Positions 1 through 44,173 of a stretch of 46,060 nt of DNA are shown here, one piece after another. The position numbers and the translations under genes were made by a program. Each line of letters opens with the position of its first letter. The stretch's first letter is position 1. The stretch comes from Escherichia phage EC147: sequence record ON185589.1. One strand, given 5' to 3'. A model generated the notes under the pieces. The model was not told the origin of the DNA and did not search any database. It was given only the letters and a program-made list of their open reading frames with translations.

Positions 1-522
1 ATGGCTAAAAACGTTGAGCCAGCAGTAAAGGCTTGCAATTTTAAAAAACTATATAATAAGCAATATGGCGATATTGCAAAAATGACAAAGGCGCACAAGT
101 ACACGCCGGAACAGGTATTTGATCTTGCTGTTCGTTACTTTACGTGGGCCGAGGAAAATCATATACAGGCTGCGGAAACGGCATCCTTTCAGGGTGATGT
201 ATACGAAAGCAAGATTCACAAGCCGCGCGTGTTCACCTTAAATGGATTCCGCTTATTCGCTGGCCTTTCTGCTTCCGTGCTTGAAAAATGGCGACGCGAG
301 CCAGGATTCAGCGATGTTATGGACTTTATCGACGGCGTTGTTTACGAGCAAAAATTCCAGCTTGCTGCAAACAATATTGTTAACGCCGGATTCATTGGTA
401 AAGAGATCGGCATTGAAAAGTCAGCCACCGTTACCATTGAGAATAACACAAGCGCCAGCGTTGACGCTGTAACGGCGGAGGAAGTCAAAGAGGCGGTAAT
501 TGACATTCTGGAGAAGATATAA
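1..522 (+). CDS. putative terminase small subunit
   Basis: 173-aa ORF starting at window base 1, directly upstream of HNH and TerL; size and position fit a T1-like TerS; no diagnostic motif, call rests on synteny. Confidence 0.5.
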   Translation: MAKNVEPAVKACNFKKLYNKQYGDIAKMTKAHKYTPEQVFDLAVRYFTWAEENHIQAAETASFQGDVYESKIHKPRVFTLNGFRLFAGLSASVLEKWRREPGFSDVMDFIDGVVYEQKFQLAANNIVNAGFIGKEIGIEKSATVTIENNTSASVDAVTAEEVKEAVIDILEKI

Positions 523-1013
523 TGAACTACTCAGATTACTTTGTCTTATCTGACGAGTCGCCAAGCGGCTTGAAATGGAAGGTTAACAAAGGTAGATCTA
601 AGGTTGGAGATAACGCGATAACTGCTATCGGTGGCGGCTACTATAAAGGCCGCCTTAATCAAAAAACTGTATATGCGCACAGAATTGTGTTTGCACTTTA
701 CTATGGCTTTGAGCCTGATGTTGTTGATCATATTGATGGTGATAGTTTGAACAATAATCCGTTAAATTTAAGGGATGGCACAAAGGCAACGAATAATCAA
801 AACCGCGTGGTGTTTGGGGCTTACTATCATAAAAGGGATGGTGTTTTTTATTCCTCGATATGTGTTAACGGTGAAAGGCATCATTTAGGAACATTTAAAA
901 GTGAGGTTGAGGCAAGGGCGGCGTACATTTCAGCAAAGCCAAAGTTTCACGAGTTCGCAAATATGGAGAGGTATAAACATGCTAATTTGGGAAGACTTGA
1001 CGCCAGCGCATAA
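522..1013 (+). CDS. HNH homing endonuclease with AP2-like DNA-binding domain
   Basis: HNH motif VDHIDGDSLNNNPLNLR..NNQN followed by AP2-like GVFYSSICVNGERHHLGTFKSEVEARAAY; ATG overlaps TerS stop (TAATG). Confidence 0.85.
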   Translation: MNYSDYFVLSDESPSGLKWKVNKGRSKVGDNAITAIGGGYYKGRLNQKTVYAHRIVFALYYGFEPDVVDHIDGDSLNNNPLNLRDGTKATNNQNRVVFGAYYHKRDGVFYSSICVNGERHHLGTFKSEVEARAAYISAKPKFHEFANMERYKHANLGRLDASA

Positions 1014-2547
1014 AAGAGCAATCAAGGAAATGAGTGAGCATTCATTCGAAAAGATGATCAGAATATGGTTTTCTCTTTTGCAAGGTCAGAAATTCTTAGG
1101 AAACTGGCATTTCAGCTACCTATGTAGCGAAGTTGAAAAAATCATCAAAGGCGAGTCACAGAACGTAATTTTCAACATAACGCCAGGCAGCGGTAAAACA
1201 GAGATATTCTCGATCCATATGTCACCTTATGCGTCATTGAAAAGTAAGAAGGTGCGAAATCTTAATCTTTCGTTTAGTGATGGCCTTGTCCAGCAGAATA
1301 GCAACCGCATCAAAGAGATTATTGGTTCTCCAGAATGGCAGGAGCTATGGCCTGGAAAGCTGGCAAAGGCGAGCGCAAAGGATTTGATTGTAACCGATGG
1401 CGGCAAGGTTAAATTGCAAGTTAACTCGCGTTCTATCGGTGGTCAGGTTACTGGTCTGCGTGGCGGCTACATGGATGATGGATTTACTGGTATGCTGGTT
1501 CTTGACGATCCAGACAAGCCGGATGATATGCTTTCTAAGGTGAAGCGCGAAGCCGGACACATGCGCCTAAAGAACACGGTGCGATCACGTCGAATGAAGG
1601 ACACCACGCCAATCGTAATGGTCCAGCAACGGCTACACGTCAATGATTCAACATGGTTCATGACAAACGGCGGCATGGGCGGCATCCAGTTTAAGGTGGT
1701 CAGTATTCCGGCGCTCGTTACTAAGGAATATCGCGAAACGCTTCCTGATTGGTTAAAGCCTGAGTTTGATCGCGATGTTTTGTCCAGTAAGCCAGTAATG
1801 ATTGATGGTGTTGCTCATTATTCATTCTGGCCTGCTAAGGAAAGCGCGGAGGAATTACTTGCACTTCGAAATGCTGATCCGTACACGTTTGCTAGTCAGT
1901 ATCAGCAACAGCCTGTTGCGCTTGGCGGCAACGTGTTTAAAACAGAGTGGTTTCAGTATTACGGAAGCAGCGAGAAATGCACGCTACCAAAACCGGATCG
2001 CTTTGAATATACATTTATCACGGTTGATACCGCGCAGAAAACAGGGGAGCTTAACGACTACTCCGTGATCTGTTATTGGGGGATGTATAAAGATCGCGTT
2101 TACTTCATTGATGGTGTTCGCGGAAAATGGGAAGCGCCAGACCTTGAGACTAATTTTGTTGCGTTCGTTAATCAGTGCTGGAAGCGCAATAAAGAATGCG
2201 GAACGTTGAGAAGGATTCATGTTGAAGATAAATCGTCTGGCACTGGCTTGATTCAGAGCGCAGCGAAAAAAATCATGATCAAGATCAATCCCGTTCAGCG
2301 CGATAAAGACAAGGTTACTCGTGCAATGGACGCAGCGCCAGTAATGCGCGCCGGACGCGTAGCACTTCCAGAATCGCATCCTATGCTGGCTGAGATACTA
2401 GCTGAAGTTGCGGCGTTCACATTCGATGATTCGCATCCTCATGATGATATTGTTGATAACATCATTGATGCGGTTAACATTGAAATGAACATGGCAGATG
2501 ATCCGGTTGGAAGAATGAAAAAATTGGCAGGTTTGCGGAACAAATAG
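979..2547 (+). CDS. terminase large subunit
   Basis: ORF track frame 901..2547; first ATG with RBS GGAGAGG is at 979 (MLIWEDL..); P-loop-like ITPGSGKTE and acidic VLDDPDKPDD; 522 aa; overlaps HNH 3' end by 35 nt. Confidence 0.85.
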   Translation: MLIWEDLTPAHKRAIKEMSEHSFEKMIRIWFSLLQGQKFLGNWHFSYLCSEVEKIIKGESQNVIFNITPGSGKTEIFSIHMSPYASLKSKKVRNLNLSFSDGLVQQNSNRIKEIIGSPEWQELWPGKLAKASAKDLIVTDGGKVKLQVNSRSIGGQVTGLRGGYMDDGFTGMLVLDDPDKPDDMLSKVKREAGHMRLKNTVRSRRMKDTTPIVMVQQRLHVNDSTWFMTNGGMGGIQFKVVSIPALVTKEYRETLPDWLKPEFDRDVLSSKPVMIDGVAHYSFWPAKESAEELLALRNADPYTFASQYQQQPVALGGNVFKTEWFQYYGSSEKCTLPKPDRFEYTFITVDTAQKTGELNDYSVICYWGMYKDRVYFIDGVRGKWEAPDLETNFVAFVNQCWKRNKECGTLRRIHVEDKSSGTGLIQSAAKKIMIKINPVQRDKDKVTRAMDAAPVMRAGRVALPESHPMLAEILAEVAAFTFDDSHPHDDIVDNIIDAVNIEMNMADDPVGRMKKLAGLRNK

Positions 2548-2576
2548 CACGAATCGACAAACCAATATATAATCAA

Positions 2577-2602
2577 AGGCTGGTTAATCCAGCCTTTTTT
2601 AT
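2577..2602 (+). terminator. rho-independent terminator-like hairpin after TerL
   Basis: AGGCTGG-TTAAT-CCAGCCT stem-loop followed by TTTTTT. Confidence 0.5.
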
Positions 2603-2615
2603 TGGAGGAAAGATA

Positions 2616-3896
2616 ATGAGTAAATCACGAATCGTTAAGGCCGATGGCTATAACGAGATCTTTAAAGGCGAGAATTGCAAATCTCGAGTAGAGCAACCAT
2701 TCTACATGCAATCAATGCCATACAAGACGCTTGCTGACTTTTACGAAAAAGATGGCCTGGCAAAAAGGGTTATTGACGTAGTACCAGAGGAAATGGTTTC
2801 CCCTGGCTTTACTGTTGACGGCGTGGCAGACGAGGCAGCATTCCGTTCTTTGTGGGATGAGAAGCGATTGAATGCAAAAATTATTGATGCGCTTTGCTGG
2901 TCGCGTTTGTTTGGCGGATCTGCAATCATTGCTCTTGTTCAGGATGGGCGGGCGCTCAAATCACCTGTAAAGCCTGGTGCCATGCTGGAAGATGTGCGCG
3001 TTTATGATCGTTATCAGATTCGCGTTGAAGCGCGAGAAACTAATCCCCGCAAGGTTCGCTATGGTGAGCCAGTGCTTTACACTGTAACGCCAGGTGGAGA
3101 CTTGCCAGAATACCAGGTACACTACACGCGCGTTTGCATTATCGACGGTGAGCGGATACCTAACGCAAAGCGACGCAGCAATGATGGCTGGGGTGAGTCA
3201 GTTCTTAACAAGCGACTTGTCGAGGCTATTGTTGATTATAACTATTGTGAAACATTAGCGACGCAATTATTGCGAAGAAAACAACAGGCAGTATGGAAAG
3301 CTAAAGGTCTTGCGGACTTGTGTGATGATGAGGAAGGTGTTAGCGCGGCACGCCTGAGACTTGCGCAGGTTGACGACGAGGGCGGCGTAGGCAAGGCCAT
3401 TGGTATTGATGCTGAGGATGAGGAATATGATGTTCTTAACTCTGACATTAGCGGCGTTGATTCTTTTCTGGAAAAGAAAATGGATCGCATCGTTTCCCTT
3501 TCAGGTATTCATGAAATCATCCTGAAAAATAAAAACGTTGGCGGCGTTAGCGCAAGCCAAAACACGGCGCTTGAAACATTCTATAAGCTGATTGAACGAA
3601 AACGCGTTGAGGATTACAAGCCTATCCTTGAATTTCTATTACCGTTCATTATTAGTGAGCAGGAGTGGAGCATTGAGTTTTCACCTTTGAGCGTGCCTAG
3701 CGATAAAGATCAGGCTGAAATTCTGAATAAGAATATCGACTCAATCAGCAAGGCTATTGATGGTCAGTTCCTTGATGTTGAAGAAGCGCGAGACACGTTG
3801 CGAGCAATCGCCACAAGAGTTAAACTAAAGGACACTAATAAAATCAAGCTGCCGGAGCCAACTGAGCAGGAGCCAGGCACACAGGGGAATGAGTAA
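2616..3896 (+). CDS. portal protein
   Basis: 426-aa ORF immediately after TerL, RBS GGAGG; size and position typical of siphovirus portal. Confidence 0.7.
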   Translation: MSKSRIVKADGYNEIFKGENCKSRVEQPFYMQSMPYKTLADFYEKDGLAKRVIDVVPEEMVSPGFTVDGVADEAAFRSLWDEKRLNAKIIDALCWSRLFGGSAIIALVQDGRALKSPVKPGAMLEDVRVYDRYQIRVEARETNPRKVRYGEPVLYTVTPGGDLPEYQVHYTRVCIIDGERIPNAKRRSNDGWGESVLNKRLVEAIVDYNYCETLATQLLRRKQQAVWKAKGLADLCDDEEGVSAARLRLAQVDDEGGVGKAIGIDAEDEEYDVLNSDISGVDSFLEKKMDRIVSLSGIHEIILKNKNVGGVSASQNTALETFYKLIERKRVEDYKPILEFLLPFIISEQEWSIEFSPLSVPSDKDQAEILNKNIDSISKAIDGQFLDVEEARDTLRAIATRVKLKDTNKIKLPEPTEQEPGTQGNE

Positions 3897-4660
3897 TGAA
3901 AGTGAAGGGCGTCGTTAAACAATGGCGCTTTCCTGAAGCAAGCGAGCGGCAATTTAGCCGCTCAATTCAGGAGGCAATTAGAGATCTTGTAGTTCTCATG
4001 CGCAAGCGAACAAAAGCGATGAAGTTTGACGCAACAGATAATGAGATCAACAGCGCAGAAGATGAAATTAACAGCCTGGCAACTGACCTTATAGCTGGCA
4101 TTGTTTCCACTCTTCCTGCAATCGCGTTGACCATTTATAAATTCAATGCGAAGCAGTTTATCAATGTTGCCAAGTCAACTGGCGGAAAGGATAACACGGC
4201 GGTAATTGTTTTGATCGCGGTTGGAGCTAACGCTAACGAGGAATGGTATCAGACGCTTTACGGGCAATGGCACGGACTCACAGAATCATCGCTAAGAAAA
4301 TTGTTCACAAATATTGTGTCTGACTGGTCAACAAACATTCGCAATGCAAACTTTCGCGGAAGCGATGATAAACAGGTTAATGATCTTGCAGAAAAGAGAT
4401 TTGCTGTTTATAGCTCTTGGGGTAAGACGAGATCAGAAAACATTATCGGAGCGTGGAATAGTCGCCTGATGCGCCAGCGTCTTTATGATGCTAAGGTAAC
4501 TCATTATTTCTGGCATGGAATGTTAGATGACAGAGAGCGTTTGCAACATGTGTTATGGGAAGGTAAAAGAATAGCGCTTGATGCAATTCATGATTTCCCT
4601 GGTGAGCCGTGGGGTTGCCGTTGCTGGGCGATTCCAGATTGGAATAGTAAAGGAGAGTAA
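3896..4660 (+). CDS. putative head morphogenesis (minor head) protein
   Basis: 254-aa ORF translationally coupled to portal (TAATG); position typical of SPP1 gp7 / Mu F-like head morphogenesis protein. Confidence 0.5.
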   Translation: MKVKGVVKQWRFPEASERQFSRSIQEAIRDLVVLMRKRTKAMKFDATDNEINSAEDEINSLATDLIAGIVSTLPAIALTIYKFNAKQFINVAKSTGGKDNTAVIVLIAVGANANEEWYQTLYGQWHGLTESSLRKLFTNIVSDWSTNIRNANFRGSDDKQVNDLAEKRFAVYSSWGKTRSENIIGAWNSRLMRQRLYDAKVTHYFWHGMLDDRERLQHVLWEGKRIALDAIHDFPGEPWGCRCWAIPDWNSKGE

Positions 4661-9000: not shown

Positions 9001-9436
9001 AAACTACACGATAAGGGAATTTCACGGCAACATTGATGCGTGGATAAACGCCGTTGATAGTGGATTAAAAGATTGCGTGGAGTTGTTCGCCGAAAAAGTA
9101 CACACAGATTTGGTTAAGCGTTCTCCGGTAGATACTGGTCGTTACCGTGGAAACTGGCAGGTAACAGCAAATAAGCCGCCATTGTATGCGCTTAATCAGT
9201 ACGATAAGCACGGAGACAAAACGATCGCGGAAGGAAAACGTGCCATATACGCAATATTACGAGGTGGCGGCGCAGTAAGAGCTATTTATTTTTCTAACAT
9301 GCTTATTTATGCTAACGCGCTTGAGTACGGTCATTCAAAACAAGCGCCAGCGGGTGTGCTTGGTATTGTTGCCGTGAAATTGCGTTCATATATGGCTGAG
9401 GCAATAAAAGAGTCGAGGGCAAAAAATGCACTATGA
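8993..9436 (+). CDS. putative neck / tail completion protein (HK97 gp10-like)
   Basis: 147 aa; motif PVDTGRYRGNW resembles HK97 gp10-family tail-completion proteins; overlaps upstream ORF. Confidence 0.6.
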   Translation: MAKNYTIREFHGNIDAWINAVDSGLKDCVELFAEKVHTDLVKRSPVDTGRYRGNWQVTANKPPLYALNQYDKHGDKTIAEGKRAIYAILRGGGAVRAIYFSNMLIYANALEYGHSKQAPAGVLGIVAVKLRSYMAEAIKESRAKNAL

Positions 9437-9824
9437 ATTAATGCTATCGGCGCGTAAGGCGCTGGCGACTGAATACGAAAGCAGATTCAAGATCGCTTAT
9501 GAAAACGTAGAGTTTACGCCACCTGGTGACGGTTCGCCGTGGTTGAAGTTTGACTATGCCGAAGTTGATACAGAATACTTGTCATTGGATCGAAAATGCG
9601 TTTCCTGTATCGGAATGATTCAGGTTGGCATTGTGTTTCCACCAGGTTACGGAACTGACAGGCCGCGCGTTCTCGCTAAAGAGATTGCGCAATTCTTTTA
9701 CGATGGTAAAATGTTGGAGCATGGTTATATATATGAGGGTGCAAGAGTTCACAAGCCGCTCAAGAGTGAAAGCGGTTGGCTTCTCCCTGTAAGATTTTAT
9801 GTTCGAATTGAAACAAAGGAGTAA
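9426..9824 (+). CDS. putative tail terminator protein
   Basis: 132 aa ORF directly upstream of major tail protein gene; call by synteny. Confidence 0.4.
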   Translation: MHYELMLSARKALATEYESRFKIAYENVEFTPPGDGSPWLKFDYAEVDTEYLSLDRKCVSCIGMIQVGIVFPPGYGTDRPRVLAKEIAQFFYDGKMLEHGYIYEGARVHKPLKSESGWLLPVRFYVRIETKE

Positions 9825-21205: not shown

Positions 21206-21236
21206 CTTGGTATCTCCTTCGTTGTTGTTGGTTGCA

Positions 21237-21281
21237 ACTATACACGATCTTACAGCAGGCGTTTAGCAAAAAGTGCTATTC
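21237..21281 (-). promoter_or_regulatory. conserved 21-bp element + N18 + TATAGT (cor promoter)
   Basis: minus-strand reading ATAGCACTTTTTGCTAAAC + 18 nt + TATAGT, about 30 nt upstream of the cor ATG. Confidence 0.55.
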
Positions 21282-21339
21282 TGTTCTTTTTGCTCTCATG
21301 TGTTCTCAAATCTGCGGAGGCGTAAATTTAGAGCAAAAA

Positions 21340-21520
21340 GTAAACAACAATAGAGAGCAATATATACAGATAAATATATATAAATACATATAAATCAATA
21401 AGTTAGTGGTATATGTATTTATATCTGTTCTTTATTGTTATCTATGTTTTGTGTGATTTTGCGTGTCTGGTGATTTTTCTGTGATTATGCATGTGTCAGT
21501 GGTTATGTGTGTATATATCT
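21340..21520. repeat. AT-rich region with ATAAAT/ATATATA tracts and GTGATT-type direct repeats
   Basis: about 500 bp non-coding between cor and exonuclease; GTGATTTT-like repeats near 21453, 21470, 21481, 21499; TGTTATC at 21436. Confidence 0.5.
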
Positions 21521-21647
21521 ATATCCTGCGCAAATGGAGGAACAAGAGAACAAAAAGACAACTCGGATATTTATCAATAACTTACATGTAAGTTTTGTTA
21601 TCCAGGTTGGTGAGAACGTTGTTAGAACATAAAAAACAAAATAGCTA

Positions 21648-21675
21648 TTGACTAAACGCATCAAATAGCTACAAT
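21648..21675 (+). promoter_or_regulatory. sigma70-like promoter for the recombination operon
   Basis: TTGACT (21648-53), 16-nt spacer, TACAAT (21670-75), about 30 nt upstream of ATG 21705. Confidence 0.5.
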
Positions 21676-21704
21676 GCAGGCATACCAACAAACGAGGGCA
21701 AATC

Positions 21705-25089: not shown

Positions 25090-25413
25090 TTACATTGATT
25101 TCATTTTACGCAATGCGCAGATACAAGCGGCAGCAAGATCGGTTAATTCTTTCTCAATGCCATGATGCGAGCCGTCTGCCTTTTCGGTCATTAGCTCTTT
25201 GTATTCCATTTCTACAATCGACATTAAGCCGCCTGGCTTGTCAATGTGCGCGTCCCAGGTTTTAGGATAGTGCTTAGTTCTTTCAATAACACTTCCCATA
25301 ACTGAATCATGTTCATGATCTCGATCATAATCTCCATCATGATCCTTTCCTCCAATTACTACTCGCGGCAAATGCACGCGCGGTAAATGATAGCCAGCGA
25401 CACGAATTTTCAT
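25090..25413 (-). CDS. hypothetical His/Asp-rich protein
   Basis: 107 aa; RBS AAGGGG; stretch HDGDYDRDHEHD suggests metal binding. Confidence 0.5.
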   Translation of the reverse strand: MKIRVAGYHLPRVHLPRVVIGGKDHDGDYDRDHEHDSVMGSVIERTKHYPKTWDAHIDKPGGLMSIVEMEYKELMTEKADGSHHGIEKELTDLAAACICALRKMKSM

Positions 25414-26954: not shown

Positions 26955-27887
26955 TTAGAGAATAGATTCAGGTTTGAAAACCTTCCTCTCTATCCCTTGT
27001 CTGTAATTATCATTAATCGGCATCATAATTTCAAGTCCTCTTTCCTCGGCAGCAATGATCGCGTCACGATCTGTGCTCTTACAGACAACTCGCATTCTTC
27101 TGTTGCCTTTATACCTGTAAGCCACAATCTCAATGTTAGTTGCATCAAAACAGGCCCAAACCTCCTGACCAGTTGCAAGATGAATATGTTGCGCATCAAT
27201 CCAGTCAACGCAAAGATAGATAGTCTTATCTGTACTTCCGGTTCTAACAATCGACCCTCGCGTGTAGTCCTTTGCTAGAAAAGACTGTTTACCTTCTTCA
27301 TCAATGAAAAGCACATTGCACATTTCATCATCAATATCATCTGAATGCACAAGGTAACATGATAACGCGTGAATGTATCGACCATCTTTTACGCCGCAAT
27401 CATAATGACCATCTTCAGGCGGGCATATTCCTTCATATGTGCTTAACGGCGTGCGATCAAATTTTAGTGTTTTTGACATAACGCGCTCGCAGCATTCATG
27501 GCTTGCCTGTTTCCCAAACGAATAACCAGAATCACGAGATACTCGCTTATTTGCCTTGATTCTATAGCCCTGCGGAACTTTTCCAAGAAAGCGGCCCAAA
27601 ATATTGATCACTTCGCTGTAAGGTTCTCCGGTTAGCTTCATGATCCAACCTATTCCAGTATCGTTTCCGCACACGTTGCAGATCGCACCGCCATCGCCTT
27701 TTTTATCTCCAAGTTTATCCGTCCATCTAAAGCGATCCTTTCCGCCGCAGTGGGGGCAAGATTGATGCTTGCCGTTAAAAACTTCATTTGGAAGACCGCA
27801 AATACTTTGTAGCGCCTCACGCCATAATCCCTGCATATATGGGAGAACATCTTCCTTTTGATAAACCATAAAGTTTTCGTTGTTCAT
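26955..27887 (-). CDS. DNA primase (zinc-ribbon + Toprim-like)
   Basis: ATG at 27887 after GAGGTG; zinc ribbon CPHCGGKDRFRW..CNVCG typical of phage primase Zn-binding domains; 310 aa. Confidence 0.65.
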   Translation of the reverse strand: MNNENFMVYQKEDVLPYMQGLWREALQSICGLPNEVFNGKHQSCPHCGGKDRFRWTDKLGDKKGDGGAICNVCGNDTGIGWIMKLTGEPYSEVINILGRFLGKVPQGYRIKANKRVSRDSGYSFGKQASHECCERVMSKTLKFDRTPLSTYEGICPPEDGHYDCGVKDGRYIHALSCYLVHSDDIDDEMCNVLFIDEEGKQSFLAKDYTRGSIVRTGSTDKTIYLCVDWIDAQHIHLATGQEVWACFDATNIEIVAYRYKGNRRMRVVCKSTDRDAIIAAEERGLEIMMPINDNYRQGIERKVFKPESIL

Positions 27888-27942
27888 ATGCACCTCAAAC
27901 AAAAAAGCCTGACAGATGATAACATCATGCCAGGCATTGTTT

Positions 27943-28416
27943 TTAGCAATTAGTGCTTTCAGGTTTATACAGGAATCCGCCAGGTTCATAATCTGACATT
28001 CTTACCACTCGCAACATTTCACGCTTATCACATCTCTTTGTGAGCGGTTTTCCATTGGAATCAAATCGCAGATCTGGACGGCAGAATGAAGCGCGATAGC
28101 CTTGACAGTCATACTTTTTGTAATCGTTATGCACCTTTTGAGCACCAGCGGCTGAAATCATACCACGAACGCGCCACTGATTTACAGTTTGCTGGCTAAC
28201 GTTAAGACGTTTTGCCATTGCTGACACACTTCCGTAATACTCAATAAGGATTTCAAGTCGCGCTTTTAGTCCGGCTCGCACTTCATCTTTTAAAACATAG
28301 TATCCTGTAGGGCGCTTGCGCTTCTTCTTATCCTTGCCTCGTCTTGTTCCGTTATTGCCATTAATTGTGCGCTTGTCAATCTTGCCTGTTGATGCTGCAA
28401 TTCGTTGCTCTTTCAT
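27943..28416 (-). CDS. putative HTH DNA-binding regulator
   Basis: 157 aa; basic N-terminus (KDKKKRKRP) and helix-turn-helix-like VSAMAKRLNVSQQTVNQWRVRG; diverges from the helicase promoter. Confidence 0.55.
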   Translation of the reverse strand: MKEQRIAASTGKIDKRTINGNNGTRRGKDKKKRKRPTGYYVLKDEVRAGLKARLEILIEYYGSVSAMAKRLNVSQQTVNQWRVRGMISAAGAQKVHNDYKKYDCQGYRASFCRPDLRFDSNGKPLTKRCDKREMLRVVRMSDYEPGGFLYKPESTNC

Positions 28417-28428
28417 TATTCATTCTCC

Positions 28429-28472
28429 AATAGCATTTTTTGTTAAACGATGATTTAATGATTGTGTATTAT
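28429..28472 (+). promoter_or_regulatory. conserved element + N18 + TATTAT (helicase promoter)
   Basis: AATAGCATTTTTTGTTAAAC (28429-48), 18 nt, TATTAT (28467-72). Confidence 0.55.
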
Positions 28473-28476
28473 ACAC
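28464..28476. promoter_or_regulatory. perfect 13-bp palindrome overlapping both divergent -10 elements (candidate operator)
   Basis: GTGTAT-T-ATACAC; overlaps TATTAT of the plus promoter and TATAAT of the minus promoter. Confidence 0.5.
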
Positions 28477-28495
28477 GCCAAATGGCATTACTCAA
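28468..28495 (-). promoter_or_regulatory. sigma70-like promoter for the HTH regulator gene
   Basis: minus-strand TTGAGT, 16-nt spacer, TATAAT. Confidence 0.45.
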
Positions 28496-28505
28496 AGGTT
28501 TTAGA

Positions 28506-35772: not shown

Positions 35773-37356
35773 TTACCCCAGCAATGTTGGATTTACGAAA
35801 ACAACGCCATTAATCACACAAATATAATTTCTTTCTTCAAGCATCGGCAGCAGTTGCGTTTCCATACGCTTCATTACGCCAGCCTGACCAACAAACGGCT
35901 TAACTTTTCGTGCAGCCTCATATATGGCGCGAACATTCAAGATTCCCTTGTTAGCCTTACCGTGTCGAGTGATAATCTCGATTAGTTTACCCATTTCAGC
36001 ATCATCACCAGCATAGCCAGAAGCGTTGGCGGCGCTAATGTATGTTTTGCTCAACTCGCTAAACATCAGCAACGCCTCTTGAACGGTTTCAACCTCAATC
36101 TCTTTCGACTTCTGAGGGTATCCACCAGGATTAAACCAGTTGCGGATAGTGTGCAAAACTGAAGCAATCCTGATCACCTGCTTATCCATTTTGCCAAGCG
36201 CGCCGCGCAGCATTGTATGCGAATACTTTCCGCCATCGGCAAGGTGCGGTTCCATCTCCTGACGAGCCATGTTAAGAACTCGCATTGCTGATTTGCTGAT
36301 CTTAAGCTGGATGTTTGATTCACTCATGATGTTATGGATCAGCTTAAAATATTGACTTTTCAGTTCTCCATCAACAGGCTCATAAGTCGAATCACCGTTA
36401 TCATCAACAAACTTTCGACGACCTAAAAATGATTCCTCACGCACAAGCAAATAACGCTCACTTACACCGATACCGCGCGATCCTGCATCCATGATGGCAT
36501 TGATTGTTTCATCCTGAGCAATTACCGCCATACAGCCAAGAGCTTTAAAACTCATATTGTTGTCAGCGTTTGCACGAGCTATAGAAACATGACCATGATC
36601 CCATGCTTTTAGCACAAGTTCGCTGTTGGTTTTACGTTCGCTATTGGCATATGTCAGACCTAAAAGGCTGTTAATACTGGTTGCCTCGTCTGAAATCACA
36701 GCAAAGTTACCCTGGCGATTGTTGATTCTTGCAAGTCCTTCCGGCGTTGTGTCGGAGACAGGGAAAACAATGTCACACATCTTTTCCAGCTTTTCTTCAA
36801 GATCTTCTTTCTCCTGGTATAGCGATTCCATATCAGCGCCAGATCGCTCGCTTTTCATCTCTTTTGCAAGACCTGCCAACTTTGCCTGAATCTTTTTTCG
36901 TTCCTTCTTTCGCTGATCATTAATTCTTTCCACTTCAGCAACCATAGGAGCAATAGCCAGGCTGTTAACGGCAGATTTACCAGTTGAAGGAGGCTGACTT
37001 GTGACAACATAAAGAGCGGTTGGCTGATCCGTTCCGTGATACTCAACCGTGAAGCGTCCAAGCATTGCAGCAGACACGCAGCCGATGAAATGCATATAGG
37101 CCGATGATTCAGGGAATTGAACAGAGCGAGCAATGTTTCGCGCCAACTTACCAACAACATCAACATCATTGCCAAGAGAAATTACAGGGTAGCGATCGTT
37201 TCCGTTATTAACATCATTAACCTCACCCCAAAAGCTGGACGATTGACGGTATCCGTTAGCCTGAATGGACACGCGCACCGGAGACAGTCCTTGTGCATCA
37301 GCTAATTCGATAATTTGTTTTGGTGTTAGTTTATTTGTTTCAAACGAAAAATTCAT
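35773..37356 (-). CDS. putative P-loop ATPase (replication-associated)
   Basis: ATG 37356 after AAAGGAG (ORF track extends into the promoter); Walker A-like QPPSTGKS and Walker B-like VISDEA; 527 aa. Confidence 0.45.
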   Translation of the reverse strand: MNFSFETNKLTPKQIIELADAQGLSPVRVSIQANGYRQSSSFWGEVNDVNNGNDRYPVISLGNDVDVVGKLARNIARSVQFPESSAYMHFIGCVSAAMLGRFTVEYHGTDQPTALYVVTSQPPSTGKSAVNSLAIAPMVAEVERINDQRKKERKKIQAKLAGLAKEMKSERSGADMESLYQEKEDLEEKLEKMCDIVFPVSDTTPEGLARINNRQGNFAVISDEATSINSLLGLTYANSERKTNSELVLKAWDHGHVSIARANADNNMSFKALGCMAVIAQDETINAIMDAGSRGIGVSERYLLVREESFLGRRKFVDDNGDSTYEPVDGELKSQYFKLIHNIMSESNIQLKISKSAMRVLNMARQEMEPHLADGGKYSHTMLRGALGKMDKQVIRIASVLHTIRNWFNPGGYPQKSKEIEVETVQEALLMFSELSKTYISAANASGYAGDDAEMGKLIEIITRHGKANKGILNVRAIYEAARKVKPFVGQAGVMKRMETQLLPMLEERNYICVINGVVFVNPTLLG

Positions 37357-37383
37357 TGGTGATAACTCCTTTTTGATGCGGCA

Positions 37384-37428
37384 ATAATACCGCACCAATG
37401 CTACCCGCATTTAACAAAAAATGCTATT
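37384..37428 (-). promoter_or_regulatory. conserved element + N19 + TATTAT
   Basis: minus-strand ATAGCATTTTTTGTTAAAT + 19 nt + TATTAT; element overlaps stop TAG of the upstream gene. Confidence 0.55.
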
Positions 37429-38059: not shown

Positions 38060-38104
38060 ATTATGCCAGGCTTTTACACCTGGCTTTTAACAAAAAGTGC
38101 TATT
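38060..38104 (-). promoter_or_regulatory. conserved element + N18 + CATAAT
   Basis: minus-strand ATAGCACTTTTTGTTAAAAG + CCAGGTGTAAAAGCCTGG + CATAAT; element TAG is the stop codon of the methyltransferase-like gene. Confidence 0.55.
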
Positions 38105-38810
38105 TTGCGTTTGCTTCAAAGACGGCGCGAGCAAAGCCGCGCGGAGTGAGGGAGCGGATCATCTTTGTGCGCGATGATTTTCCGCCAGTTTTGGCCCAGC
38201 CAGGATTATCCTTGTCGTCCTCTTTCGGAAGGATTGTTGCGCGCGGAGGAATAACAAAGCCGTTGCCAGTCCAAAGGCATGTTTTCTTAAAGTAGCGATC
38301 CCGCGCCGGAATAATATCAGGGAAGTCGGGATGTTTATCATCTTCCGGCAGATAGCCAGCGTAATCGCACGGATGGAACGTATAATCAGGCTTACGCCAT
38401 AACGTTGACAGCTTGCCTACAGGATTTTCGATCATGTAAGGAACGCCGAAATAATCAGCGATATGCGCCGCGATTCTGCAAGTGTCGGCGGCCTCATCCT
38501 GGAAAGAGGGGTTCTCAAGGCGTTTTTTGGACCAATGGCGAGATCCGCTATTTGCAAGGTCAGTGCACGGCGGAAATGCCATAATGAAATCAGGCTTACC
38601 CCAATTTTCAAGTTTTGCGGTATATTTGAATAGCTCATCAATCCACACATTAACGTAAAAAATATTATCATGGATTATGCGCACTGATTGGTAATCTCCG
38701 TGATCGGCATCATCGTAATTAAAGCAAATGCATTTATATCCAGCATCAGCCCAATCTTTAACGGCTTTACCAGATCCATCAAACAAAGAGAATATTAAAC
38801 CTTTATACAT
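38100..38810 (-). CDS. compact DNA (cytosine-5) methyltransferase-like protein
   Basis: 236 aa; motif I-like FSLFDGSG, motif IV-like FPPCTD (Pro-Cys), motif VI-like IENPVG; too short for a canonical target-recognition domain. Confidence 0.5.
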   Translation of the reverse strand: MYKGLIFSLFDGSGKAVKDWADAGYKCICFNYDDADHGDYQSVRIIHDNIFYVNVWIDELFKYTAKLENWGKPDFIMAFPPCTDLANSGSRHWSKKRLENPSFQDEAADTCRIAAHIADYFGVPYMIENPVGKLSTLWRKPDYTFHPCDYAGYLPEDDKHPDFPDIIPARDRYFKKTCLWTGNGFVIPPRATILPKEDDKDNPGWAKTGGKSSRTKMIRSLTPRGFARAVFEANAK

Positions 38811-39885: not shown

Positions 39886-40124
39886 TAGATTTTCTCCAAA
39901 TTCTCGATCTTGTTATTGCCAATTGAAGAATGAACGCAACGCTCTTGCGTCTCCTTGTTGCCATGAACATCAATATAATACCCTGGTATAACAGTAAAAA
40001 ACCAATTGCCACGCCAGAAGAAATAAAGGCCGTGCTTGCTTCCTTTCGCGCATTTATTCGCATTTTTAGGTATTGGAAGTCCGTGGACTCGCCGCAATTC
40101 TACATTCTTGTTAAAATTTGGCAT
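39885..40124 (-). CDS. hypothetical protein
   Basis: 79 aa, RBS GGAGG; Trp/Phe-rich. Confidence 0.45.
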   Translation of the reverse strand: MPNFNKNVELRRVHGLPIPKNANKCAKGSKHGLYFFWRGNWFFTVIPGYYIDVHGNKETQERCVHSSIGNNKIENLEKI

Positions 40125-40318
40125 TATACAACCTCCATAAATGTATTAAACCCGCGAAGTTTGAAAGCATCGCCATGTTTAACAACGTTCCATGTCAGGC
40201 CGGAGTGATACGCAACCATATCCTCAAGATCAATTGTGATGATAGCGCCTTTCTTAAAGATTCCTTTCTCGTGAGTGGTGTCACGCTGTACAACTTTAAC
40301 ATCAACCTGTGTTTCCAT
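40124..40318 (-). CDS. hypothetical protein (first gene of minus-strand early operon)
   Basis: 64 aa, RBS GAGGA; promoter element directly upstream. Confidence 0.5.
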   Translation of the reverse strand: METQVDVKVVQRDTTHEKGIFKKGAIITIDLEDMVAYHSGLTWNVVKHGDAFKLRGFNTFMEVV

Positions 40319-40349
40319 TTTTAAATCCTCGTTCGTTGTCGATGCGCTT

Positions 40350-40394
40350 AATATACCAATCAGAGGCGCATCGGTTTTAACAAAAAGTGCTATT
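40350..40394 (-). promoter_or_regulatory. conserved element + N18 + TATATT
   Basis: minus-strand AATAGCACTTTTTGTTAAAAC + 18 nt + TATATT. Confidence 0.55.
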
Positions 40395-40430
40395 TCTCAA
40401 CTGGCGATTATTCCATCTATTCAATTAATC

Positions 40431-40928
40431 AGGAATAACAGGAATAACTTATTCGAGATCACCTTGATTGTGAGATCTTGAGTTTGATCAATTTTAATCA
40501 GTTGATTAACTTTTTGTGTGGAGGGGATAGAGAAACACGGTCCTCTTGCATCCTTTCCGGTAATCCTAGCGCGCGCATCTGTTATCTTCTGTTATCGCTG
40601 TTATGCGTGTTATTCCGGCGTGGAATCGCATAACAAAAAATAACAAGAAAAATCCATATAACATACTAAAAAATAAGGATTATTTATTTATATGTATCTA
40701 TAAATTATTATCTGTTATGTGTGTTATGTGGGTGTATTGATAACTGATGTATTTTTGGTGGTTGTGTGTGGTTGTGTGTTGGTTGGTATGTATATATAGG
40801 GGTGGGGCGTATCCGCGCATTTTTAGATAACACGCAAAAACAACATTGATTTATAAGAAAAAAAACGCGAATCTTGTTATCTTCTGAAAAGATAACATCG
40901 GAAAACCGCCAGTAACAATAAAAAACAG
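40431..40928. repeat. iteron-rich, AT-rich intergenic region (candidate origin / control region)
   Basis: tandem AGGAATAAC x2 (40431-48); GATC x3 (40457-89); palindrome TAATCAGTTGATTA (40495-508); TGTTAT x4 at 9-10 bp period (40580-614); more TGTTATC/GATAACA copies; GTTGTGTGTG x2 (40761-80). Confidence 0.6.
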
Positions 40929-40958
40929 TTGACACGCCAGGTGGCGGTAAATGATAAT
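40929..40958 (+). promoter_or_regulatory. sigma70-like promoter for plus-strand early operon
   Basis: TTGACA (40929-34), 18-nt spacer, GATAAT (40953-58). Confidence 0.5.
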
Positions 40959-40989
40959 GCAGTCACTGAGTCACGAGGGGGTATAAAGC

Positions 40990-41460
40990 ATGAGTGAATC
41001 TGTATTTACAAATGAGCTTCGCAAGGTTGCGATTGCGCTCGCATCTGGATTGCACGAATCGATCCAGATACCTGAAAGATGGGTAAGGCAGCACCTGGAG
41101 GGCAAGAAGTCAGCCAGCAATGCTGGATCATATATCCGTCAGATTATGGGGCGCGTTCCAGAAGTGGCGGAGAAGGGGAGAGTTTCAGTTTCAAAGAAAC
41201 CTTACGGCCCTGATAGCGAATATTTCGGAGAAAATTACTTTGATGTGGCGATTGTTAGTGCGCCGAATCGCAGGGTGTACAATAAGGCCGCGCTTGAGAA
41301 GGCTGTAGCGAAAGCAAAACGCCAGGTTGCTGAGTCGATGCTTAAAGTCTCACCAAACCTAGCGAACTACTCGCCAGATGAATATGAAACACTTGCTAAG
41401 GCGATCGCAGACTTTCACGCGATCATTAAAGAAACATATCTTAACGATGAGGGGCAATAA
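40990..41460 (+). CDS. hypothetical protein
   Basis: 156 aa, RBS GAGGGGG. Confidence 0.5.
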   Translation: MSESVFTNELRKVAIALASGLHESIQIPERWVRQHLEGKKSASNAGSYIRQIMGRVPEVAEKGRVSVSKKPYGPDSEYFGENYFDVAIVSAPNRRVYNKAALEKAVAKAKRQVAESMLKVSPNLANYSPDEYETLAKAIADFHAIIKETYLNDEGQ

Positions 41461-42278: not shown

Positions 42279-42596
42279 ATGTTAAAACTTGCTGACATTA
42301 AATACCCGATCACATTCGAATCTCGCGGCGTTGGTCATTTCATGTTTACCGACGAGAAGACATGCACTAAGTTTAACGAATACGGAAGCCCAAACGCTTC
42401 AACAATGGAGATTGAACACTTCATTGAAGCGCACAATAAACACTACAACTCACTCAGAGACTACGCTTACGCAATGCCAGGATACACATGTTTTCACTAC
42501 AAGCCATATAAAGGCCAGGTGTTACCAGTGCGCTCACCGGAACGCGCAGAGATTCCGATGGTCAATATGAAAACCTGCGACTACAAAAAGCTGTGA
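42279..42596 (+). CDS. hypothetical protein (N-terminal domain paralogous to next ORF)
   Basis: 105 aa, RBS AGGAG; ADIKYPITF..AHNK resembles DNIKYPIVF..AHNK of ORF 42622; stop TGA is created inside a 16-bp tandem duplication. Confidence 0.5.
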   Translation: MLKLADIKYPITFESRGVGHFMFTDEKTCTKFNEYGSPNASTMEIEHFIEAHNKHYNSLRDYAYAMPGYTCFHYKPYKGQVLPVRSPERAEIPMVNMKTCDYKKL

Positions 42597-42610
42597 CTAC
42601 AAAAAGCTGT
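42579..42610 (+). repeat. perfect 16-bp tandem duplication (GACTACAAAAAGCTGT x2)
   Basis: copy 1 at 42579-94, copy 2 at 42595-610; spans the stop codon at 42594-96; 16 is not a multiple of 3. Confidence 0.9.
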
Positions 42611-42621
42611 GGTGCTTAAGC

Positions 42622-43249: not shown

Positions 43250-43480
43250 ATGTACATTAACAAGAAGATGAAATGCATTTCCGTTAACTATGGTTGCTCT
43301 GGCATGTTCAAGCCTGGCGAAATCTATATGGCGCAAAAGTTGAAATCATCAACCGGATCTTTTTACGTCAGCAACAGTAAAGGACATCGCATGTTCCTGA
43401 ACGGTGGTGAAGGCAATAAGGTTATGGCACACGCTATGGTAATTGCTGAATTTGAAGAGGTGAAAGATGGAAACAAATAA
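43250..43480 (+). CDS. hypothetical protein
   Basis: ATG 43250 after AGGAG (ORF track start 43187 lies in the promoter); 76 aa. Confidence 0.5.
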   Translation: MYINKKMKCISVNYGCSGMFKPGEIYMAQKLKSSTGSFYVSNSKGHRMFLNGGEGNKVMAHAMVIAEFEEVKDGNK

Positions 43481-43688
43481 GCGCGTTAAGCACAAGTTTA
43501 TTGATAATCATCGCGATGCACTTGAGGTATATAAGGTTGGTGATCTCGTGTTTATTGATGGCACGTTTGAAGGTGGACGCAGGCCTGATTTTAGGTCGAT
43601 ACTTACCGTTGACCAAGTGCGCAAGCTGGCGGATAAGTTAAATGATCTGGCAGATGAAATCGAATACAAGCAAATCCATTTTAATTGA
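43467..43688 (+). CDS. hypothetical protein
   Basis: 73 aa, RBS GAGGTGA; overlaps upstream ORF. Confidence 0.45.
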   Translation: METNKRVKHKFIDNHRDALEVYKVGDLVFIDGTFEGGRRPDFRSILTVDQVRKLADKLNDLADEIEYKQIHFN

Positions 43689-43699
43689 TAGGTTTGATA

Positions 43700-44173
43700 A
43701 TGAAAAAATACACTTTCGAACTGTGGGGCAAGAAGTACGAATTAATGACCAGTAAGCCGATTGTTATCGTTGACCTGGACGGCACACTATCGGACGGATC
43801 GCATCGTTTGCATTTGCTGCCAACTGAAAACTTGCACCTTACGGAATCGTGGCGCGAGTTTAACAGGGCCGCCGCCGGAGATTCACCGATTAAAAGCTAT
43901 CGTAAAATGTTGATTAACGCATTCGAAAAGGCAGCGCTTGAGCGTGGTTGGAATGACTCATTTCACACAGCAAACTGTATCCGCCGTTACGGATTCAAGA
44001 ATTGCCGCTCATGGGCGCGTGAAATGGCTTCATGGTATGATCTTGATGCGCATTACCTTGATATGGATTGCGCCCTGGTTGAAATGATTGAACAGGCAGC
44101 ATTAGAGGATCGACCATTAACGCAATCTGATTTTGACGATTTTGTGCGCGATGAAATTTATTATATGAGCTAA
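43700..44173 (+). CDS. HAD-superfamily phosphatase (polynucleotide 3'-phosphatase-like)
   Basis: HAD motif I VIVDLDGTLSDG (DxDGT); ATG 43700 (ORF track 43685 is TTG); 157 aa. Confidence 0.55.
   Translation: MKKYTFELWGKKYELMTSKPIVIVDLDGTLSDGSHRLHLLPTENLHLTESWREFNRAAAGDSPIKSYRKMLINAFEKAALERGWNDSFHTANCIRRYGFKNCRSWAREMASWYDLDAHYLDMDCALVEMIEQAALEDRPLTQSDFDDFVRDEIYYMS

Follow-up and report, generated by a model that had tools for sequence, protein, structure and literature searches.

The gene-free region separating the two divergent early operons of Escherichia phage EC147 (sequence record ON185589.1, a stretch of 46,060 nucleotides which as a whole is called the window below) is interpreted here as a composite element, consisting of a packaging (pac) module and one copy of a two-copy, origin-type cassette, both placed between a leftward promoter, P_L, and a rightward promoter, P_R; judging from the sequence, we would put the chances of this composite interpretation at a little under even. 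Its two halves differ in strength: the left part (40397-40578) is probably a pac site and is better supported than the right part (40579-40928), for which a replication origin is the top-ranked reading, with chances that are about even. By megablast the window belongs to a Hanrivervirus (Drexlerviridae, Tempevirinae), that is to a T1-like coliphage, its nearest relatives being damhaus, vojen, egaa and haarsle with 92-97% identity. The gap extends over 671 bp (40319-40989), rather than the approximately 600 bp of an original prediction made from the same sequence, with the start of a leftward gene on its left (ATG at 40318) and a rightward gene on its right (40990-41460), and the features described here fit into the ~535 bp between the two outward-firing promoters (Table 1).

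The original prediction had seen in this region a candidate replication origin or master control region, on the grounds of iterons, an AT-rich tract and clustered Dam sites, and the elements on which it drew were all found at or near the places where it had put them. These include a tandem 9-bp repeat (AGGAATAAC, two copies at 40431-40448, detected with Tandem Repeats Finder, TRF), three GATC sites within 33 bp (40457, 40474 and 40486), four direct copies of TGTTAT at helical-turn spacing (40580, 40590, 40599 and 40608; 10, 9 and 9 bp), an identical 12-mer, TGTTATCTTCTG, at 40580 and 40875, the inverted pair TGTTATC-N9-GATAACA at 40875-40897, a tandem GGTTGTGTGT (2.7 copies at 40758-40785, TRF) and an AT-rich tract at 40668-40710 with 91% A+T. 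Dam is indeed encoded by the phage (31032-31733, +; PF05869, E = 1e-60); a second DNA methyltransferase, a phrog_757 enzyme, was also observed in the leftward early operon (38100-38810, -). One description needs correcting, as what had been called a perfect palindrome, TAATCAGTTGATTA, is TAATCA-GT-TGATTA, with 6-bp arms and a non-palindromic centre; the arms are kept in relatives and the 2-nt centre is variable (GT, GG or AG).

Copies of TGTTAT/ATAACA number 13 in the 671-bp gap, against 0.88 +/- 0.92 expected and a maximum of 5 in 2000 dinucleotide shuffles; their density is 15 times that of the window, and the densest 350-bp intervals of the whole 46 kb all fall in the gap. At 40579-40616 the short motif recurs as direct copies at regular helical spacing, as iterons do, and these copies are adjoined by an easily unwound AT-rich element; no 60-bp duplex in the window is less stable than 40657-40716, and 21363-21422 equals it. 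Significant dyad symmetry was found at 40625-40735 (z = -3.07 when folded as single-stranded DNA, ssDNA, with 0 of 200 shuffles reaching it) and none in the pac module (z = 0.04). Of the predicted origin signature, the iterons and the meltable AT-rich tract therefore stand as non-random, in a layout which the comparison with related phages showed to be conserved across the family, but the Dam sites, discussed below, do not.

The cassette has a paralogue within the genome, which came to light during a check of IHF-consensus matches and which is flanked by a leftward cor/sie-like gene, with an ATAGCAC element of its own, and by the rightward exoVIII-Erf-SSB operon. Its parts follow each other in the order P_L-type element (21279, -), CTGTTCT/TGTTCT, A-rich stretch, AT core (21360-21420), TGTTCT/TGTTAT, G/T-rich tract, TTTTGTTATC, the promoter TTGACT-16-TACAAT and then the operon. 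In its AT core, which is the window's other least stable segment, 14-bp inverted repeats flank an IHF-consensus site, AATCAATAAGTTA, and dyad symmetry is likewise apparent (ssDNA fold z = -4.42). Counts of TGTT[AC]T per 300 bp reach 11 in the terminal cassette and 5, the second peak, in the internal one, over a background of 0.5 +/- 1.0. The terminal core of G29-2 matches only two loci in the window, namely 21372-21441 (86% over 71 nt, E = 1e-17) and 40636-40737 (E = 6e-8). The internal cassette is found at the same location in T1 (NC_005833, 29851-30377) and TLS (NC_009540, 28707-29117), and the internal and terminal cores of T1 are themselves paralogous (E = 2e-9). As another place for an origin, the primase/HTH-helicase gap (28417-28505; HTH, helix-turn-helix) was considered and rejected, since these 90 bp hold only a dispersed promoter element and no repeats.

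Individual parts of the cassette can be followed even where the surrounding sequence differs. Where the window has array A, relatives whose right-hand module is of another type have 3-4 units YGTTMY, spaced by 9-10 bp, and G29-2, TLS and tiwna have equivalents of array B (GATAACA/AGAACA). Alleles that cannot otherwise be aligned, and the internal cassette as well, retain the core sequence ATAAG..TTATATATGTAT. The G/T-rich tract, in which CACACA is 13.7-fold enriched, lies to the right of the core in all cassettes examined, the internal tract of TLS being 78% identical to window positions 40752-40797 over 46 nt. Finally, each of the window's two cassettes has TTTTGTTATC 46-56 nt before the -35 hexamer (40873 and 40929 in the terminal one, 21593 and 21648 in the internal one).

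Both cassettes are present in Hanrivervirus, T1 and TLS at the same two places, with a motif that is specific to the lineage and common to both copies within a genome: TGTTAT/TGTTCT in the window, TGTAACA/TGTTACA/GTGTTAC in T1 and TGTTCAC/GTGAACA/GGAACA in TLS. Because the motif varies by lineage and matches within the genome, a phage-encoded, co-evolving DNA-binding protein is indicated rather than a host factor, and the sequences thus point to binding of the repeats by a trans-acting factor of the phage. Sites for host ArcA, OmpR and Fur, considered as a source of TGTTA-type repeats, were rejected by reasoning alone, on account of the spacing and of the lineage-specific variation of the motif. 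In every case examined, the first gene after the gene-free region, which measures 630-740 bp, is that of a DUF7174 protein, and the intergenic region has a mosaic breakpoint at ~40604-40630. Other Hanriverviruses have the left part in common with the window, a different right part and a DUF7174 allele that is 25-34% identical, though their genomes are ~90% identical elsewhere; Warwickviruses have the right part in common (~72%), a DUF7174 that is 60% identical and a different left part. As a separate observation, the DUF7174 allele has been exchanged with Warwickviruses along with the right half of the intergenic region. A scan of viral contigs with a single protein returned close relatives only.

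The left sub-module behaves differently from the cassette. The 180-bp pac segment is missing from the internal paralogue, where the first iteron comes directly after the P_L-type element, and it is ~90% identical in all Hanriverviruses independently of the sequence to its right; in the Hanriverviruses that share it, TerS is at least 95% identical. Matches to the IHF consensus number 15 in the window, that of the segment included. The position of the putative cut follows from the ends of related records. That of G29-2, whose authors linearised contigs where most reads ended abruptly, ends in ...GGAGGGGAT and starts with AGAGAAAC..., which corresponds to window positions 40528/40529, and the haarsle record, which is independent, has 40521 as its first position and 40520 as its last, the two starts being 8 bp apart and inside the G-rich box. 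The cut would thus be placed near the midpoint (40524) of inverted GTTAT-type arms at 40432-40448 and 40600-40616.

More distant relatives agree in outline: the T1 reference record starts inside the homologous gap and annotates repeat_region 1..2800 as terminal repeat, the TLS record starts at the restriction-mapped pac in the equivalent gap, and in both phages analogous short repeats with 2-3 GATC sites are found just left of the record starts. In the SU57 paper a PhageTerm end is given in the same untranslated region, where the pac of T1-like phages is stated to lie. The terminase genes terS and terL are outside the 46-kb window; in relatives they follow ~8 kb rightward of the putative pac (damhaus 43446-43967 for terS), and the small terminase of T1-like phages is a distant homologue of P22 gp3, with 29% identity over ~110 residues.

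From these patterns we infer the functions of pac and origin, which protein binds the repeats and what part transcription plays; these would combine as follows. Terminase would recognise the TATTCC/GGAATAAC quartet and TAATCA-N2-TGATTA, possibly with IHF, and would make its first cut near 40521-40529, after which headful packaging would proceed rightward; with such a cut and such a direction, the region to the right of the cut would be part of the terminal redundancy. The cassette would be a replication origin of the P4 ori/crr kind, in which a phage-encoded protein coats the repeats flanking the core on both sides, opening of the AT core is aided by negative supercoils generated at the two outward-firing promoters, and the DUF3987 helicase and the P4-alpha-type primase are loaded thereafter. 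A wider proposal, which we regard as unlikely to hold in full, is that Drexlerviridae have two palindromic iteron origins, paralogous to each other, of which one is fused to pac in the terminal redundancy and the other lies upstream of the recombination operon, and that they replicate by means of a "split" P4-alpha-like system (separate primase, helicase and an unrecognised origin binder such as DUF7174 or the Cro-like HTH protein), the origins being opened with the help of divergent early transcription.

In P4, ori and crr are both required in cis, and alpha binds both. The P4 record annotates these cis regions at 9086-9809 (ori) and 4291-4590 (crr), and both contain 8-bp "type 1" repeats, GGTGAACA (equal to TGTTCACC), spaced by 9-11 bp, in either orientation and separated by AT-rich DNA. 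The window resembles this arrangement in its short repeats at helical spacing, direct and inverted, adjoining AT-rich DNA, in the presence of two separate repeat regions per genome (40579-40928 and 21207-21704), and in the position between divergent genes, which is likewise that of P4 ori; in TLS, moreover, the repeat CTGTTCAC is identical with the P4 core, and the primase of the phage shows homology to the primase domain of P4 alpha (residues 25-261, E = 1e-13). The primase here is, however, only the N-terminal third of an alpha-like protein, and its match to the primase family phrog_510 is confined to the N-terminal half of that family; for the alpha helicase and the C-terminal origin-binding domain no counterpart was detected by sequence comparison, and the long dyad-symmetric AT core and the G/T-rich tract are unannotated in the P4 record. 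What the phage has in common with P4 is therefore a layout and a single enzyme, which does not make it a member of the P4 replicon family.

Other known systems provide partial parallels. As in plasmid and lambdoid iteron origins, there are direct repeats, an adjacent AT-rich region and an inverted copy just ahead of the next gene's promoter, and the repeats are inherited with that gene; in contrast with them, the repeats measure 6-8 bp, spaced by one helical turn, where those origins have ~19-22 bp, DnaA boxes are lacking, the neighbouring DUF7174 is no recognisable Rep or O protein and the second cassette precedes recombination genes instead of a rep gene. With the headful pac sites of P1, SPP1 and P22, the left sub-module has in common short repeats on either side of the cut, an IHF-consensus site and a location at the end of a terminally redundant T1-like genome, and with P1 pac also GATC sites together with a phage Dam. 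By analogy with P1, the GATC trio by the cut could make the first pac cleavage dependent on the phage Dam. Unlike those sites, the putative pac is ~8 kb from terS in relatives, rather than within or beside it, and it lacks a P22 pac consensus; its GATC sites, in the contexts AGATCA, AGATCT and TGATCA, are partly conserved and do not match the repeated TGATCA/G hexamers of P1. In herpes simplex virus, oriS and oriL combine an AT-centred palindrome, inverted initiator sites and divergent promoters, and exist in multiple copies, one of them near packaging signals. This is an analogy of layout only, the virus and its proteins being unrelated.

Several observations weigh against the composite interpretation. 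On the packaging side, the position of pac depends on the record-opening conventions of other groups, the termini of T1 and TLS have been mapped only roughly, and the best match to the P22 pac consensus in the region is 12 of 22 positions, none being outstanding. On the replication side, the window's (C/T)TGTTAT(C/G) shares CTGTT alone with the P4 iteron TGTTCACC, no similarity to P4 alpha was found either for DUF7174 (hhalign) or, by sequence comparison, for the DUF3987 helicase, and the fold matches of DUF7174 are weak and winged-helix-like, none with E <= 0.001 (Foldseek). An exact-word inverted-repeat test around the AT cores, since superseded by the ssDNA fold z-score test, was significant in TLS only. 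GC skew, with minima at the divergent regions at ~28 kb and ~40 kb, tracks the gene strand, and was set aside as uninformative of an origin, following gene orientation only. Lastly, the only canonical sigma70 promoters are each preceded, at a fixed distance, by one of the cassettes, which fits a transcriptional role equally well.

It is this last point that carries the main rival, according to which the cassettes are transcriptional control regions, the TGTTMT repeats serving as operators or activator sites for a phage regulator (e.g., DUF7174 or the Cro-like HTH protein) of two sigma70 early promoters, and the AT core, possibly bent by IHF, looping distal and proximal sites together. We consider this somewhat unlikely, but it keeps alive the "master control region" of the original prediction. 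Near-consensus TTGAC(A/T) promoters heading operons are found only at the ends of the two cassettes, 14 other operons using the ATAGCAC type, with TTTTGTTATC equidistant from the -35 in both copies and the operator-like TGTTATC-N9-GATAACA just upstream of P_R; IHF-consensus sites in or near the cores and a first gene after P_R that co-varies with the cassette would suit a regulator too. However, a promoter with its operators usually needs far less than the 13 sites over some 350 bp, the minimally stable 60-bp core and the G/T-rich tract that are seen here, and the core is 215-270 bp away from the promoter. The layout is moreover like that of known origins (P4 ori/crr), in a family that is otherwise without an origin candidate.

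The division into two sub-modules is itself denied by a second alternative, in which 40397-40928 is one large pac and TerS binds GTTAT-type repeats on both sides of the cut and wraps the DNA, as with pacL/pacR of SPP1 or the hexamer sets of P1. In its favour, the inverted GTTAT arms are centred on the putative cut, the 9-10-bp spacing would suit a ring-shaped TerS, and the GATC trio with the IHF-consensus site is reminiscent of P1 pac. We nevertheless judge it improbable, given that a paralogous cassette with the same repeats lies 19 kb away, with no terminus reported there, that neither TerS nor the left module moves with the cassette in recombination, and that the TGATCA context is found at one of the three GATC sites.

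An oriC-like origin under DnaA and Dam/SeqA control, which the signature named in the original prediction implies and which the AT-rich tract, the phage dam gene and the three nearby GATC sites would favour, is hardly credible and is largely refuted by the sequence: no DnaA box (TTWTNCACA) occurs in the region and 2 occur in the window against 7 expected, while GATC is unenriched (3 observed, 3.6 expected, from a window total of 246) and only partly conserved (relatives keep 1-3 of the three sites), with a second cluster of three GATC in 34 bp at 25317, and the trio belongs to the separate sub-module 40397-40578, ~170 bp from the AT core. That second cluster (25313-25344), the only other one of its kind, lies inside a 12-bp tandem repeat, TCATGATCTCCA, of 2.7 copies.

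Table 1. Coordinates of the features discussed, in window numbering
Feature	Position	Strand	Description
Putative pac module	40397-40578	.	Segment limited to the terminal region
Quartet TTATTCC/TATTCA + GGAATAAC x2 + TTATTCG	40408-40455		Part of the putative pac module
Inverted repeat TAATCA-GT-TGATTA	40495-40508		IHF consensus on both strands (matches 40495/40496)
G-rich box GGAGGGGATAGAGAAAC	40520-40536		Part of the putative pac module, which also has a GC-rich spacer
Putative first packaging cut	40521-40529	+	Would be the left end of the first headful; packaging rightward
Iteron array A	40579-40616	+	Four direct (C/G)TGTTAT(C/G/T), 10/9/9-bp spacing
Iteron array B	40630-40663	-	ATAACA x3 (40630, 40640, 40658), inverted relative to arrays A and C; A-rich
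AT core, candidate unwinding element	40657-40716	.	87% A+T; box TATATGTATCTATA; centre of dyad 40627-40730
Iteron array C	40712-40745	+	CTGTTATG + TGTTATG direct; GATAACT (40739) inverted
G/T-rich tract TTTTTGGTGGTTGTGTGTGGTTGTGTGTTGGTTGG	40750-40800	+	Right of the AT core
Promoter-proximal iterons	40826-40918	.	GATAACA 40826-40832; TGTTATC-N9-GATAACA 40875-40897; GTAACA 40913-40918; among A-tracts
Paralogous internal cassette	21207-21704	.	Upstream of the exoVIII-Erf-SSB operon
Leftward promoter P_L	40350-40393	-	Dispersed-element copy ATAGCACTTTTTGTTAAAAC (40393-40374), then TATATT -10-like (40355-40350) ~22 nt on
Rightward promoter P_R	40929-40958	+	TTGACA-18-GATAAT, sigma70 consensus matched 11/12
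DUF7174	40990-41460	+	First gene of the rightward operon; 156 aa; PF23796, E = 5e-27; co-inherited with the cassette
Cro/YdaS-like HTH protein	27943-28416	-	HTH domain matches; gene overlaps the primase gene; candidate trans-acting replication protein
P4-alpha-type primase	26955-27989	-	Zn_Ribbon_Prim; candidate trans-acting replication protein
DUF3987 / phrog_2373 "DNA helicase"	35773-37410	-	545 aa; leftward operon; candidate replicative helicase

Candidates for the protein that binds the repeats are DUF7174, the Cro-like HTH protein, the termini of the helicase and TerS. The AlphaFold2 model of DUF7174 (pLDDT 80 overall and ~90 over residues 1-90) predicts an alpha/beta N-terminal domain followed by two long C-terminal helices. 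A sequence profile search of the PDB with DUF7174 returned nothing, and neither did comparison of the helicase and primase with PDB sequences.

The two bounding promoters are of different types. P_R was the sole match in a promoter scan of the region, in which no consensus promoter directed into the AT core was found, and the TTGAC and ATAAT parts of its hexamers are invariant among relatives. P_L contains one of the 14 copies in the window of a dispersed element, ATAG[CT]A[CT]N3TTGNTAAA, each of which is followed ~22 nt later by a (C/T)ATAAT-like hexamer and, a further 45-60 nt on, by a start codon; as the copies each precede a -10-like hexamer and a gene start, P_L can be taken as the promoter of the leftward operon (ATG 40318). 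This element, ATAGCACNNNTTGNTAAAA (the P_L copy being on the reverse strand at 40374-40393), is the 21-nt repeat described for TLS (PMC11447400). The 22 nt from TTGTTA to the -10 exceed normal -35 spacing, which suggests a phage-specific class of promoter.

Examples of the dispersed element occur on the + strand at 28430, 30954, 31995, 41717, 42180, 43177 and 44173, and on the - strand at 40393, 39502, 38103, 37427, 35260, 21279 and 6818. The stretch of ~22 nt between element and -10 hexamer is often an inverted repeat, and a conserved "cgaaacga" leader lies between the (C/T)ATAAT hexamer and the start codon at these sites. The first gene of the leftward operon (40124-40318, -) matches PF25180, "Phage antiviral trigger protein Gp54" (E = 5e-37). 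An Rfam scan of 40200-41100 gave sub-threshold noise only, with no sign of a known RNA, and a terminator-like hairpin at 40802-40825 was discarded, as it is not conserved in grams and tiwna.

T1 is a classic T phage, and Drexlerviridae belong to the most frequent coliphages and contaminants in laboratories. Analyses of the TLS and SU57 genomes found no origin in T1-like phages, and a re-analysis of TLS reported no iterons anywhere in that genome; in the accessible literature, which does not include the T1 genome paper (Roberts 2004), no origin or paired cassettes are described for Drexlerviridae. The kind of element is thus known, and its form and place in this family appear to be new. The analysis yields two precise origin candidates and a base-level prediction of the pac cut, and it links the family with the replication system of P4. 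Should it prove correct, it would enable the design of T1-based phagemids and transducing vectors, help to interpret defence systems that sense replication origins or DNA ends, and account for the region as a hot spot of recombination between genera.

Two minor observations may be added. About 20 GenBank records of the MG0656xx series ("Campylobacter phage A14b, A13a, E6 ...", with C. jejuni labels) are 91-94% identical to the window across the region, and these "Campylobacter" records look like mislabelled or contaminant coliphages. The top-scoring tandem repeat of the window, AAAAGCTGTGACTACA with 2.6 copies and 92% matches, is located at 42570-42611 in the early rightward region.

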